Positions 10,133 to 53,729 of a stretch of DNA of 64,000 bases are shown here, piece by piece. Each line of letters starts with the position of its first letter. The stretch's first letter is position 1. Below the pieces are notes generated by a model. It had not been told where the DNA came from, did not search any database, and saw nothing but the letters and a program-made list of their open reading frames with translations. Position numbers and translations under genes: made by a program. This DNA comes from Parcubacteria group bacterium Gr01-1014_8 (GTDB taxonomy: Bacteria > Patescibacteriota > Minisyncoccia > Phycocordibacterales > UBA2100): NCBI GenBank assembly GCA_007376385.1, contig VMGC01000001.1, positions 192,001-256,000 on the forward strand, read 5' to 3'.

Positions 10133-11110
10133 CGTGCCAAATACGATAGTCCTTTGACAACTGAAGAACGACACAATTCTTGCTCGTAAGAGCAGGAGAA
10201 AAAGAAAGAATAAGAAATTTTCTGAAAAGAAAATTTCTTTTCGCGCCGTCGCTCGCGGATCATGAGAATAAATTCTCGCGATACCGCTCGCTCGGCGCGA
10301 TCAACAACATTGATTCGGCTATTGTCTTTGGCCGGATCAGTGCAGGAAAAAATGTATTTTTGCGCAACCACTTTTCACAACCACAAGGTTGTAGAAAAGT
10401 GCAGTCCTGTAATAGGGAAAGCAAAAATCAAAAACAATCCGCCTTCGCACACGTTGTGTGCTATGGCGGGACAAAGAAAGTCCCGACACGCCAAAAGGTG
10501 TGACGGGCGCAATGCTTGTCCGTCTTGTAGCGGACAAGCAAAGTAATAAACCAATAACGCGGTTCTCAAATTTCCAAACGGGAATTCTGAGAAAGGGCGT
10601 GCGGCGGATGCCTTGACAGAAGAAGGCGATGAAGGACGCAGTTCGGCGGCGATACGCTTCGGGGAGGTGCCAAGCAACCTTCGATCCGGAGATTTCCGAA
10701 TGGGGAAACCCCATAGAGCAACCCTCTATGACTCATGCTCTAAACAGCATAGAGAGCAGACCTTGGGAAGTGAAACATCTCAGTACCAAGAGGAAAAGAG
10801 ACCAATAGGTATTCCCTTAGTAGCGGCGAGCGAAACGGGAAAAGCACAAACTCAGCCACAAAATCGAAGCGCGATTTATTTCGCGAATCGATTTTGGGGA
10901 TGGGGGTTATAAGGCTACAGCGCTAGCAATAGGTAGAGTAAAAAAATGCTTAGTTAGAGGAAGCGCCTGGGAAGGCGCGCAACACAGGGTAATAGCCCCG
11001 TACTCGAAAACGAAGCATCTCTATGGCTGTAGTTCTTGAGTAACTCGAGACATGAATAGCTCGGGTGAATTTGCCGGGACTAACCGGTAATGCTACATAC
11101 TTCTTCTGAT

Positions 11111-11153
<43 letters not shown>

Positions 11154-12660
11154 GGTGAGGGGAGTGAAATAGACCTGAAACCGCATGCCTACAAGGAGTC
11201 GGAGCGGGCACCACAGTGCTCTTGAAATTTTTTGCAGAATTTTTGCAAAAGATCTTTTCGGGTGCAGTGTGGTGTCCGTCACGGCGTGCCTATTGAAGAA
11301 TGAGCCAACGAGTTAATGCATACAGCTGGCTAAGCCCTTTTCGGGTGGAGCCGTAGCGAAAGCGAGTGTGAATAGCGCGACTATAGTTGTATGTATTAGA
11401 CCCGAAGCCAGGTGAGCTACCCATGAGCAGGCTGAAGTTTATAGAAATATAGATGGAGGGCCGAACCCGTAGATTGTGCAACATCTTGGGATGACTTGTG
11501 GGTTGGAGTGAAAAGCTTATCGAACCTGGTAATAGCTGGTTCTCTCCGAAAGAGCTTTCGGGCTCGCGTCATGGATTACATATGGGGGTAGAGCACTGGA
11601 AGAAGCGGATAGGCCGAAAGGCCACTGCCTCTATCAAACTCCGAATACCATATGCGTACCGTGGCAGTTAGACGATGGGGGCGAAGCTCCATTCGTCAAA
11701 AGGGAAACAGCCCAGACCGCCAGTTAAGGTCCCTAAATCTATGCTCAGTGCATTTCCAAGGAGGTGAAATTTCACAGACAGTGAGGATGTTGGCTTAGAA
11801 GCAGCCACCATTCAAAGAAAGCGTAACAGCTCACTCACTCAGAGATTTCGCGCCACAAATGATCGGGGCTTAAGCATAGTACCGAAACTGCGGATTCAGT
11901 ACGTCTTCGGATGTACTGTCTGGTAGGAGAGCGTTCTCTGTGCGATGAAGGTAAAGGGGTGACCCATGCTGGAGCGCAGGGAAGTGAAAATGTTGGCACG
12001 AGTAACCGCAAGGCAGGTGAGATTCCTGCCCGCCGAAAGAACAAGGTTTCCTTCGCAATGGAGATCAACGAAGGGTTAGTCGGTCCTAAGCCAATGGCGA
12101 ATGCCGCAGGCGATGGATTCATGGTTAATATTCCATGACTCGGAATTGGTGCGATGGAGTGACGGAGTGTTGTACCTCAAGCATATTATGGATTTATGTT
12201 CAGGCCGTGAGGATGCTTTTCAGGAAAATCCGGAGAGCACAGTCCAAGCGGAGTGGAAAAGTGGAGGCCTCGGCCGAAACTGATTTGAGGGAGCACGCTT
12301 CCAAGAAAAACTTCTAAGCTTATAACCAATGACGAACCGTACCGCAAACCGACACAGGTGTTCTGGTCGAATAGACTAAGGCGAACGGGTGAGAGATGCT
12401 CAAGGAACTCGGCAAAAAAGTGGCCGTACGTTAGCAATAAGGCCTGCCCAATACAGTGATGTATGGGGCCGCAGATAATTATTCCCAGGCGACTGTTTAC
12501 CAAAAACACAGCTCCCTGCAAACTCGTAAGAGGAAGTATAGGGGGTGATGCCTGACCAATGCCGGAAGGTCAAGTGTGGTCGGTCTCATATAGCAATATA
12601 TGTTGCTGGCACTACATAAGCCCCGGTCAATGTCGGCGATAACTATAATCGTCCTAAGGT

Positions 12661-13360
12661 TTCCCGCTTAAGAAATTGAGCGGGGAAGGACTGGGACGAT
12701 CATAGAATCGAATAAACAGCGAAAGAAAATACCAAAGCTGCCTCTCTGTGCAGTAATGCACAAGTGGTCCTAGAAACATGGCTATATGCTGGAAACCCTA
12801 TGGTATAATTATTCCATAGATGAGTAATCAGCAGGAAAGGCCAGAGATGAAAGGGTGGATCGTCGGTTTTACCGACGGCGAAGGATGCTTTTCAATAAGC
12901 ATGTTTCGCAACAAAACCACCAAGTTTGGTTGGCAAGTATTCCCAGAGTTTGTAATAACTCAGGGAAAGAAAAGTTTGCCAGCACTCGAAACTTTCCAAA
13001 ACTTCTTTAAGTGCGGAAAGATATACGAGAACGCTAGGTACGATAATCATCGTGAATATCTGTATCGATACTGTGTACGATCAATTTCGGATTTGCGGGA
13101 GAAAATAATCCCGTTTTTTCGAAAAAACAAATTGTATACAGCCAAACAAAAAGATTTCGAACTGTTTGCAGATGTCATAGAAAAGGTGTATCGAAAAGAA
13201 CATCTTTTAGAATCGGGATTGCGAGCGATAGCGCGCAAGATCGAACAGATGAATCGCAAGAAGAAATCAACATTTCTGGAATCCTCAGAGACTACACGCC
13301 ATGCCCCTAAATCTAAATAAGATCGGGTGAAGATATAGTCCAAAGGTAATAGGAACCTAG
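12661..13360 (+). mobile_element. group I-type intron in 23S at E. coli L1917-equivalent site, carrying a LAGLIDADG homing endonuclease gene
   Basis: Inserted between GGTCCTAAGGT and AGCGAAATTCCT. Contains ORF 12820..13320. Confidence 0.7.
12820..13320 (+). CDS. LAGLIDADG homing endonuclease (intron-encoded)
   Basis: 166 aa; motif GWIVGFTDGEGCFSI near N-terminus. Confidence 0.85.
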   Translation: MSNQQERPEMKGWIVGFTDGEGCFSISMFRNKTTKFGWQVFPEFVITQGKKSLPALETFQNFFKCGKIYENARYDNHREYLYRYCVRSISDLREKIIPFFRKNKLYTAKQKDFELFADVIEKVYRKEHLLESGLRAIARKIEQMNRKKKSTFLESSETTRHAPKSK

Positions 13361-13372
13361 AGCGAAATTCCT

Positions 13373-14142
13373 AGAAGACTGGGACTATCAGTCAAAAACT
13401 ACTGATAGCAAATTCTGCTATATGCTGGAAACTCCGAGTATCCAACAGTACCCTGACGAAATGGAAGGGTAAAAATCTGTTGGTGCGGACAATCAGCAGG
13501 GAAGTCGTAATTGACCCCTCAACGACTACACGCAGAACTCCACGAAGCTCATCAATCCGATGCTGTTTCGGGAGGTGATATAGTCTGAACTGCATGGCGA
13601 CATGCAGAGTTTGGCTCGCGCCAAACCGCTTCAAACAAATTGAAGTCATTATTCTCACTAGAGAATAGTAAGTAACAGAATGTGTCTGGTAACTGGATTG
13701 CCAGTTAGTACAGCGATGTACTACAAAAGATCCGCCTGTCAGCAATGACGGTAGTAATTCGGCTTATAACGGTGGAATCCTACTCGGAGCACTTTAGACG
13801 AGGTGCGTTGATGAAAGGATAATACCGTGGGAAGTCTTGTGAGTTTCGTGGAGGGCAACCTCCGTGCGAGAGCGCCTCGCCCGGTTGAGGGCGGTCGGTC
13901 GGCATTGGTGCTGACTGTCTGATCTGGAGCCTCTGTCCAGGCTCTCGCATCAATCTTCTCATCATGGTGATGGGAACTTCCACGAAACTCGCAATGACCC
14001 CGTAACGACTTAGCGCGAAAGCGCTGGAAGTGTCTCAAAAACACTTAACACGCCGACTCTGCAATGCGCAGAAGAAGATATAGTCTAATGCCCGAAGTAA
14101 TTCGGGGAGAGTGTCATATTGCGCGAAATATGACGATCAAAC
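13373..14142 (+). mobile_element. second intron-like insertion in 23S (L1931-equivalent), no intact ORF
   Basis: A 12-nt exon AGCGAAATTCCT separates it from intron 1; exon resumes near TGAAGTTCAGACGCGCACGAATGG. Only short or antisense ORFs inside. Boundaries approximate. Confidence 0.45.
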
Positions 14143-14700
14143 TCAAATGAAGTTCAGACGCGCACGAATGGTATAACGACTTGGGAACTGTCTCGAGCAT
14201 TTGCCCGGTGAAAATACAAGGGCGGTGAAGATGCCGCCTTCCTGCAGCTAGACGAAAAGACCCCAGAAGCTTTACTGTAATTTGGTATTGAGGATACGAT
14301 TTTTCCGCGTAGCGTAAGTGGGAGGCTTTGAAGCAAGGATCTCGGTTCTTGTGGAGCCGTCAATGCAACACCACTCCTAAAAATTGTATTTTCTAACTTC
14401 CATAGCAAAACTGTGGAAAGACAGTACCTGATGGACAGTTTCGGTGGGGCGCTGTCCTCCTAAAAAGTAACGGAGGAGCCTATTAAGGTCACCTAGGTGC
14501 GAATGGAAACCGTACCGGTAGTGCAATGGCAAAAGGTGGCTTGACTGCGAGTCGTACGTGACAAGCAGGCGCGAAAGCGGAGCATAATGAACCGATGGTT
14601 CGCATTAGATGCGACCAAAGATTAACGGATAAAAGTTACTCTGGGGATAACAGGCTGGTTTCGCCTAAGAGTCCAAATCGACGGCGAAGTTCGGCACCTT

Positions 14701-15552
14701 AACAAATCGGGGTGCGACGTAAGCAATTACGTAGCTTGGCTCACACATGAGACCAAGAACCAACATGTGTGCAGTTCAAATCGTGGCTTATAACGGTGAA
14801 CTCCATGGTATTATAGAACAATCGTTCTATAGTATATGGACAATACCGTGGGAAGTTTAACTCAATTACAGCGATCAATAATTATCGGTAGTCTCTTAGG
14901 TGATGGCTACTTACGGATCGTACCGCGCAGATACAATGCGTTTCTCGAGATCAATCATTCGTATTCACAAAAAGAATATGTTGATTGGACATTCGAGATG
15001 CTCAAATCGATCTGTAGAAGCGGTCCGAAGATGCGAAACGGAAATGGTGTGCGAATTGCATACCGTTTTACGACTCGTCAAATGCCGGAAATCACCGAAT
15101 TGTTCAAAGTGTTTTATGCCAATGGCAAGAAATAAATTTCGAACAATTTAAGATTAGATCCGATAATGCTTGCTGTATGGTTCATGGATGATGGAAGTAG
15201 GTGTAGCGTTGAGAACGTGTACCTTAATACTCAGCAGTTTAATTTCGATGATCAAGAAAAATGCAGGGCAATGCTCATGCGGCTTGGTATCGAAACAACT
15301 CTCAATAAGGACAAGAAGTATTTGAGAGTGAGGATAAAAACATCCTCAATCCCAAAACTTCATAAAATTATCTCACCGCACATCATTCCATCCATGAAAT
15401 ATAAATTGGGTTATAACCCCGTAGAGACTCGCTTCTTCGGAAGCGGAGTTACTGACTCTGTAATGAGCAGTAGCTAACACGCCACCTCCTTTCAATAGAA
15501 AGGATGATGATATAGTCCGATCCTTCCAGTAATGGAAGAAAAAATGACATTG
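14701..15552 (+). mobile_element. third intron-like insertion in 23S (near L2500-equivalent, GGCACCT|CGATGTCGGCTC) with split LAGLIDADG gene
   Basis: Exon resumes at CGATGTCGGCTCATC (~15553). Contains ORFs 14836..15135 and 15166..15477. Confidence 0.7.
14836..15477 (+). pseudogene. double-motif LAGLIDADG homing endonuclease interrupted by an in-frame TAA (two ORFs: 14836..15135 and 15166..15477)
   Basis: First half carries IIGSLLGDGYL; second half carries VWFMDDGS. Spacing fits a single ~210 aa enzyme. Stop codon at 15136-15138. Confidence 0.6.
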
Positions 15553-15786
15553 CGATGTCGGCTCATCTTAGCGCGGGGCTGGAGAAGGTCCCAAGCGTAT
15601 GGCTGTTCGCCATTTAAAAAGGTACGTGAGCTGGGTTCAAACCGTCGTGAGACAGGTTGGTCTTAATCTGCTGTAGGCGTTGATTCTTGAGGAGACTCAT
15701 TTTTAGTACGAGAGGACCGAAATGAACTGACCTCTGGTCTGGGGGCTGTAGTACCAACTGCATCGCCCCGTAGCTATGTCGGGATT

Positions 15787-15819
<33 letters not shown>

Positions 15820-16004
15820 GACTCCAAGATTAGGAATCGTTATAGACTCGTGGGAGATGACCACGTTGATAGGCACCAGGTGGAAGCGCAGTAATGCGTT
15901 GAGCCGAGGTGTACTAATTAGTCGACAGAATTCTCGAAAGGAATTTTGGGAGTCGCGATACTGGTTTATTGCGACGAGCGAGGACGAAGCGAAAATTTAT
16001 TGGC

Positions 16005-16094
16005 GACGTAGGGCGAGAGAAGCGAAAATGTACTCATTTTCATTTCCGAGCCGAGGAGCCAAAATAGGGTCGAATACCCTTTATTTTCATTTCG
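16005..16094. repeat. ~92 nt dispersed repeat, copy A (between 23S and 5S)
   Basis: ttattggcgacgtagggcgagagaagcgaaaatgtactcattttcatttccgagccgaggagcc...ctttattttcat; ~88% identical to 29877..29970. Confidence 0.8.
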
Positions 16095-16260
16095 TCCGAG
16101 CGAAGGCGCAACAAAGGGTTACTACCCTTTATTGCGAAGTAACAAAACGCATTCTTTCTTTCTGTGGTTCGCCGAAGCTCGCACAAGCGAGCGTAGGAGA
16201 CTGCATTGTGTCGTTCTTCGGTTGCCGAAGGCAAAGTTCATTGCAATTGAAGTTTTTGTT

Positions 16261-16363
16261 CTGGTGATTTATCGCTGGGGTCACACCTGTTCTCATTCCG
16301 AACACAGTAGTTAAGCCCAGTTGAGGCGATGGTAGTCGCAAGGCGAGAGTAGCTAGTCGCCAG
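16261..16363 (+). rRNA. rrf: 5S ribosomal RNA
   Basis: ctggtg...CCGAACACAGTAGTTAAGCCC...GAGAGTAGCTAGTCGCCAG with terminal helix pairing. Confidence 0.85.
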
Positions 16364-16379
16364 AACAAAGATTTCAAAG

Positions 16380-47671: not shown

Positions 47672-48340
47672 AGAAGGCTTGAACTTTGACAACTGAATAT
47701 GAAAAATTGTACGCAAAACCAAAAAAGAAATTGGTAAGTAAAATTGTTGCCGGCGCTCGCTCGGAATTGAAAATTTATTTTCATTTCGCTCGCTCGCATG
47801 GGCAATAAGAATTCTTGTTGTTCTCAAGTTAGGAACAATAAGACACACACAAAAGCAAGAAAACAGAAAATACATATTGAGGTTCCAGGAGGATCTCATG
47901 TGTAAGTAAACAGTAATAACGAGACAAAAGATCCCCCAAGGGGACTGCGACTTTCTACGATTCAAATGAATCGTGAAAGTCGGGAGATATACATTCTTTT
48001 GTTTCGTCCATCCTAGAGATATTGAAGCAATTCAAATTCTTGAAAGTGGTGTAAAAACCATTTTTACTTAGAGTTTGATCCTAGCTCAGGGTGAATGCTG
48101 GCGGTATGGATAAGGCATGCAAGTCGAATGGGTTAGACCCATGGCAGACGAGGTAGTAACAGGTAGGTACGTCCCCGGAAGTCGGGCATAACCAGCCGAA
48201 AGGTTGGATAATTCCCGATGGTCTCGCAAGAGTAAAGATTTATCGCTTCCGGAGCGGCCTGCTTTGTATCAGCTTGTTGGTGAGGTAACGGCTCACCAAG
48301 GCTATGACGCATAGGGGACCTGAGAGGGTGACCCCCACCG

Positions 48341-48377
<37 letters not shown>

Positions 48378-48891
48378 TGCAGCCGAGAATATTCGACAAT
48401 GGGCGAAAGCCTGATCGAGCGATACCGCGTGGTGGATGAAGCGCTTCGGCGCGTAAACACCTTTTATGAGGGAAGAAATTTTGACGGTACCTCATGAATA
48501 AGGGGCTCCTAACTCTGTGCCAGCAGGAGCGGTAATACAGAGGCCCCAAGCATTACCCGGAATTACTGGGCGTAAAGGGTGCGTAGGTGGTCATATTAGT
48601 CGCCTGTTAAAACCCACGGCTCAACTGTGGAACCGCGGGCGAAACGGTATGACTAGAGAGAGTGAGAGGTGAATGGAACTCATGGTGTAGGGGTGAAATC
48701 CGTTGATATCATGGGGAACACCGAAAGCGAAGGCAATTCACTGGCACTTTTCTGACACTCAAGCACGAAAGCGTGGGTAGCGAACGGGATTAGATACCCC
48801 GGTAGTCCACGCCCTAAACGATGATCGCTGGATTTGGGGAGTATCGACCCTCTCCGAGTCGAAGCTAACGCGTTAAGCGATCCGCCTGGGT

Positions 48892-48923
<32 letters not shown>

Positions 48924-49386
48924 AGACGGGGGCTTGCACAAGTGGTGGAGCGTGTGGCTCAATTCGTCGCTAAGCGAAGAACCTTACCAGGGCTAGAAAT
49001 CCAGCTGCATACTTTGGGAAACCTTAGTAGCCTTCGAGGGTGCTGGACAGGTGATGCATGGCTGTCGTCAGTTCGTGGTTTGAATCGTTCCCTTCAGTGG
49101 GGTAACGAACGCAACCCTCGTTGCCTGTTATATTTGTCAGGCGAGACTGCCCCCTCACGGGGGAGGAAGGTGAGGATGACGCCAAGTCAGCATGTCCCTC
49201 TGATGTCCTGGGCTGCACACGCGCTACAATCGCCGTTACAACGAGGCGCAACGTCGTAAGACCGAGCAAATCTTTCAAAAGCGGCGCCAGTTCGGATTGA
49301 GGTCTGCAACCCGACCTCATGAAGCCGGAATCACTAGTAATCGCGGGTCAGCCACACCGCGGTGAATACGTTCTCAAGCCTTGTAC

Positions 49387-50231
49387 TCACAATAAAAGCG
49401 CACAGCAGTGTACATATCTATGCGGTTAAAATCCGCACCTCTCTTTCGTACAGAGAGCGTAGCAGAAGGATAGTTGTTATCCGCGAGGATGATAATGGAG
49501 GATCCTAATGCAAAGAGCAGCCATTTCGCACAAAAGCCGACCGACCTGTCAATGGGTGGTGAGGATAGGGAAGGTCCTAGAAAGGCAAGAAAATGGATGC
49601 CTAGAACAGATACGCACATAACCTGTGGAGATCTGACGCTGTTATCCCAAAGATGGGATATGATGAATCTGACGCAGCGTCAGAAGTCAGCTGAGTCATA
49701 GTATTTGCAGATATGCAAAAAAGGACTCACTCAAAGCAAAATCTTAGTCCAGATTATGTTGTTGGACTCGTAGATGGTGAAGGAAGCTTTACTGTCTACG
49801 TAAGAAATCCAGACATAGAGAAAAAAGTCGCTCGAAGAGTGGTTGTAGAGCCAAAATTCTACATAAAACTAATCGAACGCGACAAAGATATTCTCTATGC
49901 ACTTCGAGATTTCTTCGGATGTGGAAGTATTTACTTCCAAAAAGATAATCGTCCGAATCATCAACATTGCTATCGTTACGAGGTCTTCCGGTGGGAAGAA
50001 CTTCAAACGATAATCATTCCGTTCTTCAAGCGGCACGTTCTCAAATTCGCGTCAAAACGGCACGACTTTGAAGTGTTTTGCATGATGATGGAGCTTCTCA
50101 AAAAAGAAGCACATCGAACGGAAAAAGGACTACGAGAGTTGTTTAAGTTGAAACAACGCATGCATTGAGCTCGCGTAGTGCGGGAAATCCGCTCGCTACG
50201 TGGGAACATCAATTCTTAGATTCAAGAAGAT
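49387..50231 (+). mobile_element. intron-like insertion in 16S (after CTTGTAC, ~E. coli 1392) carrying a LAGLIDADG gene
   Basis: Interrupts the universally conserved TTGTACACACCGCCCGTC. Contains ORF 49713..50168. Confidence 0.65.
49713..50168 (+). CDS. LAGLIDADG homing endonuclease (intron-encoded)
   Basis: 151 aa; YVVGLVDGEGSFTVYV motif. Similar architecture to the 12820..13320 protein. Confidence 0.85.
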   Translation: MQKRTHSKQNLSPDYVVGLVDGEGSFTVYVRNPDIEKKVARRVVVEPKFYIKLIERDKDILYALRDFFGCGSIYFQKDNRPNHQHCYRYEVFRWEELQTIIIPFFKRHVLKFASKRHDFEVFCMMMELLKKEAHRTEKGLRELFKLKQRMH

Positions 50232-50480
50232 AATCGCCCGTCAACTCAGGGAAGCCGGGAGTGTCCGAAGCACATACTCGTTATGTACCAAGGCAAACTC
50301 GGTGACAAAGAGTAAGTCGTAACAAGGCACGGCTAGCGGAAGCTGGTCGTGGATTCATTCAAAATTGATTTCGATTTTCAGGTTCGCCTGATAATCGGAG
50401 CAGTCGATTTCTGTATCTCGATCGAGTACAGAAGAAGGTATGACATTGATCCTCAAACATGTCGGACAACTTGGAAAGAC

Positions 50481-53657: not shown

Positions 53658-53729
53658 GCGCGTTTAGCTCAGTGGTAGAGCATCCCTCTGATAAGGGGAA
53701 GGCCGTAGGTTCAATCCCTACAACGCGCA
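53658..53729 (+). tRNA. tRNA-Ile (anticodon GAT)
   Basis: Cloverleaf folded by hand: acceptor GCGCGTT/AACGCGC, D arm GCTC-AGTGGTA-GAGC, anticodon stem TCCCT/GGGGA with loop CTGATAA, T arm GTAGG-TTCAATC-CCTAC. No encoded CCA. Confidence 0.8.

Follow-up and report, generated by a model that had tools for sequence, protein, structure and literature searches.

The window that we analysed, a stretch of 64,000 nucleotides (nt) from the Parcubacteria group bacterium Gr01-1014_8 (contig VMGC01000001.1, positions 192,001 to 256,000 of the forward strand), contains one gene for 23S ribosomal RNA (rRNA). It is very probable that this single gene, from a bacterium of the Patescibacteria (candidate phyla radiation, CPR), carries four mobile group I introns, at the sites L1931, L1943, L1951, and L2500, which are termed introns A to D below. 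Site numbers are positions of the Escherichia coli 23S rRNA, taken from an alignment with rrlB. Group I introns are removed by two transesterifications that are started by an external guanosine and that end with ligation of the exons. Each of the four elements would fold as such a ribozyme, and their guanosine-started excision would yield a 23S rRNA of 3038 nt.

The four introns appear to represent different stages of gain, decay, and loss. They would have spread by homing, in which alleles without the intron are cut by the LAGLIDADG endonuclease that the intron encodes and acquire the intron during repair, and after fixation the endonuclease gene would decay. The gene is intact in intron A, interrupted by one nonsense codon in intron D, and entirely lost from introns B and C; relatives of intron B, and other introns at the site of intron C, keep endonuclease genes.

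Exons and introns of the 23S rRNA gene

The borders were defined, and four introns resolved, by Rfam scans of the window with the large subunit (LSU) rRNA and group I intron models and by alignment of a trial spliced product to rrlB of E. coli K-12, i.e. by two of the checks that an earlier reading of the sequence alone (the sequence-only reading) had put forward. The bacterial LSU rRNA match is complete (10579-15938, plus strand, 2090.8 bits), is the only one in the window, and has a length of 5360 nt compared with the 2925 positions of the model. It is followed by a 5S rRNA at 16260-16365.

All exons and introns lie on the plus strand. The first exon (10579-12660, E. coli 1-1931) ends with ...GTCCTAAGGT and is followed by intron A (12661-13360, 700 nt), which is inserted after U1931. 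The next exon is a micro-exon of only 12 nt, AGCGAAATTCCT (13361-13372, E. coli 1932-1943), and precedes intron B (13373-13682, 310 nt), inserted after U1943. A second micro-exon of 8 nt, TGTCTGGT (13683-13690), corresponds to E. coli 1944-1951 in the rrlB alignment, and intron C (13691-14149, 459 nt) follows after U1951. Introns A, B, and C are thus packed within 21 bases of exon. The subsequent exon of 550 nt (14150-14699, E. coli 1952-2500) extends from AAGTTCAGAC to GGCACCT. Intron D (14700-15552, 853 nt) is inserted after U2500, and the last exon (15553-15938), which starts with CGATGTCGGCTC, covers C2501 to the end of the gene according to Rfam and the rrlB alignment, as is the case for the first exon at the other end.

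The predicted joins are 12660/13361, 13372/13683, 13690/14150, and 14699/15553, and the resulting junction strings are GGTCCTAAGGT-AGCGAAATTCCT-TGTCTGGT-AAGTTCAGAC and GGCACCT-CGATGTCGG. When the spliced product was compared with E. coli rrlB, the conserved sequence was continuous across all four junctions.

These borders agree in large part with the sequence-only reading. Its outer borders coincide exactly with the first base of intron A (12661) and the last base of intron D (15552), and the breaks in conserved exon sequence after ...GTCCTAAGGT (12660), AGCGAAATTCCT (13372), and GGCACCT (14699), with resumption at CGATGTCGGCTC (15553), had been placed correctly. The number L2500 was likewise borne out by the rrlB alignment. 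The same alignment puts the first two breaks after U1931 and U1943, and not at L1917 and L1931 as had been proposed; no insertion is present at L1917. A junction quoted as TGTCGGG does not exist in the window, where the exon resumes with AAGTTCAGAC at 14150 (E. coli 1952).

Compared with the Rfam consensus, the 5' domains of the 23S rRNA are expanded by two short, lineage-specific hairpins, at 10860-10892 (~32 nt) and 11209-11268 (~60 nt). Both are too short for introns, and relatives also vary in length at these positions.

Group I ribozyme cores

The gathering score of the Rfam family RF00028 (Intron_gpI) is 50 bits. Intron B exceeds this value (13363-13607, 67.1 bits, E=7e-16). The matches of the other three introns are weaker and come from a more permissive scan of the 23S region: 32.4 bits for the 3' half of intron D (15438-15539, E=9e-6), 24.7 bits for intron C (13743-14107, E=0.002), and 17.5 bits for intron A (13154-13352, E=0.26-0.53). 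We attribute these lower scores to features that split the model, i.e. open reading frames (ORFs) in introns A and D and long P6 and P7.1/P7.2 insertions in introns C and D. For intron A, the ORF starts in the P5 loop, continues across P6, and reaches into P7, the 3' strand of P3 (P3'), and P8, and this split accounts for its weak score.

The element GAUAUAGUC, which is the 3' strand of P7, occurs in all four Rfam matches, and its presence in four separate matches was the first sign that there are four introns and not three. In each case, the 5' exon ends with a U that is paired with a G of the guide sequence in P1, and a terminal G precedes the 3' exon (...CCTAG, ...GAATG, ...AAATG, and ...CATTG for introns A to D, respectively). 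The core helices P3, P4-P6, P7, and P8 could be assigned in canonical order, with the P3/P7 pseudoknot, in all four introns; for introns C and D, the assignment is based on the sequence and on the Rfam alignment of the 3' core. The sequence-only reading had named a missing group I core as the observation that would contradict it, and a P3-P8 core is seen in all four elements. Its central proposal, group I introns with LAGLIDADG homing genes at conserved 23S sites, of the kind known from CPR bacteria, Coxiella, Simkania, and Thermotoga, therefore holds.

The four cores show similarities in pairs. Introns A and B have the sequences GCUAUAUGCUGGAAAC and AAUCAGCAGG in common. Introns C and D share the core sequences GGCUUAUAACGGUG and AAUACCGUGGGAAGU, and in both, two extra hairpins, P7.1 and P7.2, separate P7 from P3'. 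Hairpins at this position are a trait of subgroup IA. For all four sites, homologous introns at the same site were found, as well as relatives in which the site is exactly empty.

Two micro-exons separate introns A, B, and C

In intron C, P1 is formed by CUGGU and GCCAG (13700-13704), and the intron ends with ...CAAAUG. P6 is extended by a GC-rich, strongly folding segment of ~170 nt (13830-14003), and P7.1 and P7.2 (14013-14046) are located between P7 and P3'. The genomic loci used for comparison are denoted by three-digit numbers (L002 etc.). L1951 introns were also found at five loci that carry a homologue of the intron A endonuclease (L002, L012, L021, L052, and L060), none of which has an L1943 intron. 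The L1951 intron of L002 is homologous to intron C (nhmmer, 73 bits), aligns at both ends, and has the same start. This locus reads AGCGAAATTCCT-TGTCTGGT/AACTGGATTGCCAG (the slash marks the insertion point), i.e. an empty L1943 site is situated beside an L1951 intron. The L1951 site itself is empty in L267, which has the contiguous sequence TGTCTGGTAAGTTCAGAC.

These comparisons bear on the number of introns between 13373 and 14149. The sequence-only reading had counted three insertions in the gene, the middle one a single ORF-less intron. By eye, the region does look like one block, and the absence of an ORF from all of it was stated correctly. That it is one insertion, in contrast, is hardly credible. 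Rfam detects two complete and separate group I cores in the region (13363-13607 and 13743-14107), and the 8 nt between the two introns are E. coli 1944-1951. Furthermore, the two elements occur singly in relatives, the L1943 element in L267 and the L1951 element in L002, at sites that are 8 nt apart and with the same ends as in the window. Introns B and C with the 8-nt exon TGTCTGGT between them thus take the place of the supposed single insertion.

The same two-intron arrangement is present in L275, an independent and unrelated metagenome contig with exons that are 86-93% identical to those of the window. It has the triple arrangement of the window with both micro-exons: an L1931 intron with an endonuclease gene, AGCGAAATTCCT, an L1943 intron with an endonuclease gene, TGTCTGGT, and an L1951 intron that is homologous to intron C and, like it, ORF-less. 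This locus also bears on the idea that the crowded arrangement is a chimera, produced when introns of different strains were joined during metagenome assembly. Mis-assembly is a classic problem of rRNA genes, and relatives differ in the introns that they carry. Nevertheless, a chimera is very improbable, given that the series L1931, 12 nt, L1943, 8 nt, L1951 recurs in the independent assembly; in addition, the micro-exons are shorter than typical assembly k-mers, and each junction of intron, micro-exon, and intron should therefore be contained within single k-mers or reads.

With four introns in the gene, three of them within 21 nt of exon, each micro-exon must serve two introns. Micro-exon 1 would be the 3' exon of intron A and also provide the P1 partner (UUCCU) of intron B, and micro-exon 2 would be the 3' exon of intron B and provide the P1 partner (CUGGU) of intron C. 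If this is true, the same exon bases are used for recognition of the upstream 3' splice site and then for the downstream P1. The bases GUCU of micro-exon 2 may, in addition, pair with AGAC of the guide region of intron B as P10. This candidate helix is not conserved in L269, and for that reason we give it little weight.

The targets of LAGLIDADG enzymes span ~20 bp. An L1951 intron at a distance of 8 bp should hence break up the target of the L1943 enzyme, in which case the order in which the introns invade, or their co-conversion, would be important. The two micro-exons, of 12 and 8 nt, would also be a compact substrate for finding out whether neighbouring group I introns are spliced in a fixed order.

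Intron A and its endonuclease

P1 of intron A is predicted to be formed by the exon sequence AGGU (12657-12660) and the internal guide sequence GCCU (12740-12743). The further core helices are P3 (12777-12782 with 13298-13303), P4 (12787-12792 with 12828-12833), and P7 (GACUA at 13290-13294 with UAGUC at 13336-13340). To quantify the pairing, 14 members of the family were aligned without their ORFs, and 57 proposed pairs were scored with the structure written on the row of the window. Standard pairs account for 88% of the cells, compared with 33-38% when the partners are slid by one to three columns, and 24 of the 57 pairs are changed on both sides. None of 500 shuffles matched the observed values, a control that is not a probability, and the structure was drawn from one of the aligned rows. 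The slid controls and the changes on both sides still make the case for the predicted structure. P3 is paired in 100% of the cells and has compensatory changes at four of its six pairs, while the pairing in P7 is 91%. P1 (AGGU/GCCU) is invariant, and U1931 is opposite to G in 13 of the 14 sequences.

An intron A without a normal P1 was also considered. In this candidate, CUGGGAC paired with the exon sequence GUCCUA (1922-1927), which lies five bases ahead of the splice site; it was dropped when the family alignment revealed the invariant GCCU guide.

Two RNA designs can be distinguished among the L1931 introns of the compared loci (L002-L081). In type 1, the guide GCCUUAG directly follows the splice site. 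Type 2, which includes intron A, has a hairpin that starts at base +1 and a conserved CUGGGAC (the elements at 12691-12697 and 12767-12773 in the window), which can pair with an intron-internal GUCCUAG or with GUCCUA of the exon. L026 and L048 have U at exon position 1924 and the motif CUGGAAC. In intron B, at L1943, the same CUGGGA serves as the actual guide.

The ORF of intron A (12820-13320) encodes a single-motif endonuclease of 166 aa (motif GFTDGEG) and is intact, as had been noted from the sequence alone; it matches the Pfam family LAGLIDADG_1 with 89.9 bits (cut-off 23.1) and 2.3e-25. A search recovered 2203 homologues, the best of which is 96% identical. The 3' end of the gene (...ETTRHAPKSK) is encoded by the segment from J6/7 through P7 and P3' to P8, and in the family protein alignment the C-terminus ...SSETxRHAP is kept over the P7/P3' sequence. 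This conservation fits the double constraint, on the ORF and on the ribozyme core, that has been described for L1917 and L1931 introns (PMC1995217).

A genome scan with the alignment of this endonuclease yielded 80 loci, mostly from Patescibacteria; the closest is from Ca. Kaiserbacteria, with 85% amino-acid identity. At all 75 loci with locatable junctions, the intron is situated between ...CCTAAGGT and AGCGAAATTCCT, i.e. at L1931. The site is empty in L267, and the predicted target of the enzyme is the intron-less sequence GTCCTAAGGT/AGCGAAATTCCTTGTCTGG. The same endonuclease family occurs at L1931 in genomes that are not labelled as CPR, i.e. a Pyrinomonadaceae chromosome (L052, OY970256.1), Acidobacteriota (L054, L069, and L079), and Gemmataceae (L076); some of these loci lie on complete chromosomes or on contigs of great length. 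The range of the family thus extends beyond Patescibacteria.

Intron B and the L1943 endonuclease lineage

P1 of intron B is formed by UUCCU/AG and CUGGGA (13379-13384). The other helices are P2 (13385-13408), P3 (13413-13418 with 13532-13537), P7 (13524-13528 with 13581-13585), P8 (13538-13574), and P9 to P9.3 (13590-13668), and the intron ends with ...AACAGAAUG. The minimum-free-energy fold contains P1 (UCCUAG with CUGGGA), P2, P3, P4, P5, P8, and P9-P9.3.

Homologous L1943 introns with the same ends were found at L161, L189, L267, L269, L271, and L273-L277. They share P3, P7, P9, P9.1, the 3' end GTAACAGAATG, and, in most members, the first 13 bases, AGAAGACTGGGAC. Compared with intron B, they have compensatory changes in P1, P3, P8, P9, and P9.1. 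In P1 of L269, the pair at intron base +1 is changed from A-U to U-A; P3 is changed from UUCUGC/GCAGAA to CUUUGC/GCAAAG; three different P8 helices are present; in P9, CUGCAUG is replaced by CUGUAUG; and P9.1 is altered on both sides. L002, with the continuous sequence AGCGAAATTCCT-TGTCTGGT, represents the empty site.

All ten distinct relatives of intron B (L161, L189, L267/268, L269/270, L271/272, and L273-L277) have an endonuclease ORF, of which L161 has only the 5' part. The ORF sits in the P6 region. The relatives with an ORF are ~1100-1230 nt long, compared with 310 nt for intron B, from which the ORF is cleanly lost; no ORF of at least 40 aa with a detectable endonuclease is present in introns B and C. 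The introns of L161 and L189 start with AGAAGACTGGGAC like intron B and have a LAGLIDADG-type ORF, which is 284 aa long in L189 and truncated at the end of the contig in L161. The L1943 endonuclease (~285 aa) has at least 260 homologous clusters, some of them labelled Patescibacteria or Vogelbacteria. Eight homologues were inspected on their contigs and, together with L189, provide nine distinct contexts, in all of which the gene lies inside an L1943 intron.

The nearest 23S rRNA genes belong to Ca. Kaiserbacteria and other metagenome-assembled genomes of Patescibacteria. The one closest to that of the window (L267/L268, ~87% identical) has the L1943 intron alone and is empty at L1931, L1951, and L2500. 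The L002 gene, likewise among the nearest (~87%), is empty at L1943 and L2500. At L269/L270, L273, L274, L276, and L277, an ORF-less L1931 intron, the 12-nt exon, and the L1943 intron follow one another. Together with L275, the 12-nt micro-exon, which had been regarded as unusual in the sequence-only reading, is thus found in six of the nine distinct L1943-intron genes with an examined context (L269 and L273-L277). The ORF-less L1931 introns just upstream of the 12-nt exon in L273 (3171-3355), L274, L276, and L277 have a length of ~185 nt, which is short for a group I ribozyme.

Metagenomes were scanned for L1943 junctions with TAAGGTAGCGAAATTCCTV, i.e. TAAGGTAGCGAAATTCCT followed by a base other than T, and at least 120 matches were obtained. 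Among the matches listed, most are ordinary 23S genes with U1944 changed to A or C, and the only true L1943 introns are L161 and L189; the scan gives no frequency of L1943 introns. The junction pattern DAGCGAAATTCCTV has too few specified bases. A looser pattern, AGCGAAATTCCTVN{2,14}GGGA, produced 65 matches on viral contigs, all of them by chance and none in an rRNA context, and it was not used on metagenomes. Position 1944 of the 23S rRNA, a U in E. coli, is occupied by A or C in many genes from the environment (TTCCT-AGTC or TTCCT-CGTC; loci L147-L266). This base is thus not universally conserved, which limits searches for L1943 introns with junction patterns.

Outside L1943, the closest RNA relatives of intron B (nhmmer, 42-62 bits) are at L030 (1274-1464), L022 (1334-1584), L081 (1621-1854), and L061 (8936-9166). 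They are introns near E. coli 2300, and ~370-410 nt separate them from the L1931 intron upstream. The same ribozyme lineage thus occupies several 23S sites.

Intron D and its interrupted endonuclease gene

P1 of intron D is formed by GCACCU and GGGGUGC (14709-14715), and the intron ends with ...ACAUUG. P3 is located at 14783-14787 and 15481-15485, P7.1 at 15431-15444, P8 at 15487-15504, and the 3' strand of P7 at 15509-15518. Nine loci (L027, L030, L034, L037, L040, L071, L076, L081, and L273) have L2500 introns that share this P1 and the 3' core, and the site is empty in L267 and L002. With junctions placed by motif, the introns of L027, L030, L034, L037, and L076 end with A and not with G before CGATGTCG. 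They either lack the canonical terminal G or have a true junction that is shifted. One Coxiella intron reportedly also lacks the canonical terminal G.

The LAGLIDADG ORF of intron D is split, in agreement with the sequence-only reading. The N-terminal half of the LAGLIDADG_2 gene (14836-15135, 99 codons, motif LLGDGY) ends with an in-frame TAA (15133-15135), and the C-terminal half (15136-15477, motif WFMDDGS) continues in the same frame, with a possible restart ATG at 15166. The Pfam profile LAGLIDADG_2 matches the halves one by one with 72.8 and 47.3 bits and the joined protein with 132 bits (profile positions 1-168); the C-terminal half corresponds to profile positions 99-168, and the motifs LLGDGY and FMDDGS are both present. 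Codon 100 is TAA, compared with Ile (L040 and L034) or Ser (L273) in uninterrupted L2500 relatives. The gene is 57-67% identical to these intact relatives over the full length and has no other lesion. A change from the Ser codon TCA to TAA requires one base. In the absence of further damage, the gene is probably a pseudogene of recent origin; a sequencing error is also possible.

We also considered that the two half-ORFs form an active two-piece endonuclease or that the TAA is read through. The halves are in one frame and well conserved, an ATG is present 10 codons past the TAA, and LAGLIDADG enzymes consist of two similar halves. This is nevertheless unlikely: no obvious ribosome-binding sequence was seen before ATG 15166, the relatives that were found are all single-chain enzymes, and the stop is explained by the one-base change from Ser TCA. 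Recoding of TAA was rejected, since TAA ends the endonuclease gene of intron A in the same window and is thus an ordinary stop there.

Splicing or retention

Several points weigh against four self-splicing introns. Introns A, C, and D are below the gathering score of RF00028, which is a formal failure, although an explicable one. The guide of intron A lies ~80 nt inside the intron, behind two hairpins, unlike a textbook P1, and a competing helix of CUGGGAC with GUCCUAG or with the exon sequence GUCCUA is also conserved. Splicing, exon ligation, and endonuclease activity are all inferred. In addition, the L1931 intron of Simkania has been reported to be unspliced (as cited in PMC11270868), a precedent for retention at this very site.

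The elements might accordingly be derived from introns and no longer be spliced and ligated, either retained as expansions of the 23S rRNA or excised so that a fragmented 23S rRNA is left, like the intervening sequences processed by RNase III. Excision without ligation is on record for intervening sequences of bacterial 23S rRNA (as cited in PMC11270868), and decay is under way in the window, as introns B and C are without ORFs and the ORF of intron D is broken. We nonetheless regard this as quite unlikely. The ribozyme cores are intact, and the families show covariation-type constraint. In H69-H71 and the peptidyl-transferase region, where the introns are inserted, retained inserts of 300-850 nt or free fragments of 8 and 12 nt would be hard to fit into a working ribosome. 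The gene is the only LSU gene in the window, and CPR genomes usually have one copy (PMC11270868). Lastly, insertions of CPR rRNAs have been reported to be removed from transcripts (Brown et al. 2015, as cited in PMC11270868). Four spliced group I introns thus remain the preferred reading.

Comparison with known systems

A survey of 348 CPR 23S rRNA genes (Tsurumaki et al. 2024, PMC11270868) found insertions of at least 100 nt in 82% of the genes, and up to 16 in one rRNA gene. Group I introns made up 45% of the 23S insertions, and LAGLIDADG proteins accounted for most insertion ORFs with a known protein domain. Frequent LAGLIDADG_1 sites were 1917, 1931, 1952, 2593, 2604, and 2657, and activity was shown for I-ShaI, a CPR enzyme of this class. 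The window agrees with the survey in the host group and in the presence of several group I introns with LAGLIDADG ORFs in the 3' half of the 23S rRNA. In contrast, the text of the survey, as far as it was available, does not name L1943; its numbered sites (23IS9-11) cannot be mapped to E. coli from that text, nor can a match to L2500 be read from it.

Bacterial introns with endonuclease genes have been listed at L1917, L1931, L1951, and L2593 (Haugen et al. 2007, PMC1995217). The Thermotoga L1931 intron has a length of 698-700 nt and an endonuclease of 162 aa, compared with 700 nt and 166 aa for intron A at the same site, and in both the ORF extends into the ribozyme core P7/P3/P8 (PMC1995217). 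Within the set of loci compared here, intron A has a type 2 RNA with a guide ~80 nt downstream and differs from the type 1 L1931 introns. In Coxiella burnetii, the introns Cbu.L1917 and Cbu.L1951 flank an exon of 34 bp (Raghavan et al. 2007, as cited in PMC11270868), compared with 12 and 8 nt in the window. The H69-H71 region thus contains group I introns in tandem, including one at L1951, in Coxiella as well as in the window. The Coxiella L1951 intron encodes an endonuclease of 157 aa (PMC1995217), while that of the window is ORF-less.

The crowded arrangement is ordinary for Patescibacteria and recurs elsewhere. CPR rRNA genes with multiple introns are already well documented (PMC11270868), so that the finding leaves the knowledge of these genes unchanged and adds one more well-resolved example of the dense packing of homing introns in H69-H71. 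It also provides one gene with all stages of endonuclease decay, i.e. an intact gene, a gene with one nonsense codon, and a lost ORF. The mildly new point is L1943. The site is not named in the literature searched, the coverage of which was incomplete and did not extend to key figures, and this is absence of evidence only; a review of bacterial group I introns (PMC3984707) uses no L-numbering.

We propose only tentatively, and with more doubt than confidence, that L1943 is a homing site unnamed in the literature, with its own ~285-aa endonuclease lineage, which is often separated by 12 nt from an L1931 intron and, in two or more organisms, by 8 nt from an L1951 intron as well. In this proposal, the 8-nt exon would be among the shortest between bacterial group I introns, and the shared exon bases would force ordered or mutually dependent splicing and create three overlapping endonuclease targets. 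L1943 could then join the catalogues of rDNA intron sites. For annotation, standard rRNA callers report one match of 5.4 kb and miss the 8-nt exon, and the mature 23S rRNA and the phylogeny derived from it would be wrong unless the introns are cut at the right bases.

The 16S rRNA gene

The 16S rRNA gene of the window is also interrupted. The exon ends with ...GCCTTGTACTCAC at 49390 (E. coli C1399) and resumes with CGCCCGTCA at 50235. The insert (49391-50234, plus strand, 844 nt) has an Rfam match to group-II-D1D4-1 (49639-49726) and contains a LAGLIDADG_1 ORF of 151 aa (49713-50168, 56.5 bits). A group II intron that carries a LAGLIDADG gene is known from position 1400 of CPR 16S rRNA (PMC11270868), and the insert matches it. 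The Rfam match to the 16S rRNA extends from 48063 to 49422, and the 3' piece of the gene reaches to ~50350; owing to the intron, the Rfam end at 49422 is misleading. The 23S-5S pair (10579-16365) and the 16S rRNA gene (48063-50350) are unlinked: the latter is situated ~32 kb downstream of the 5S rRNA gene on the same strand and is followed by a gene for tRNA-Ile(GAU) at 53658.

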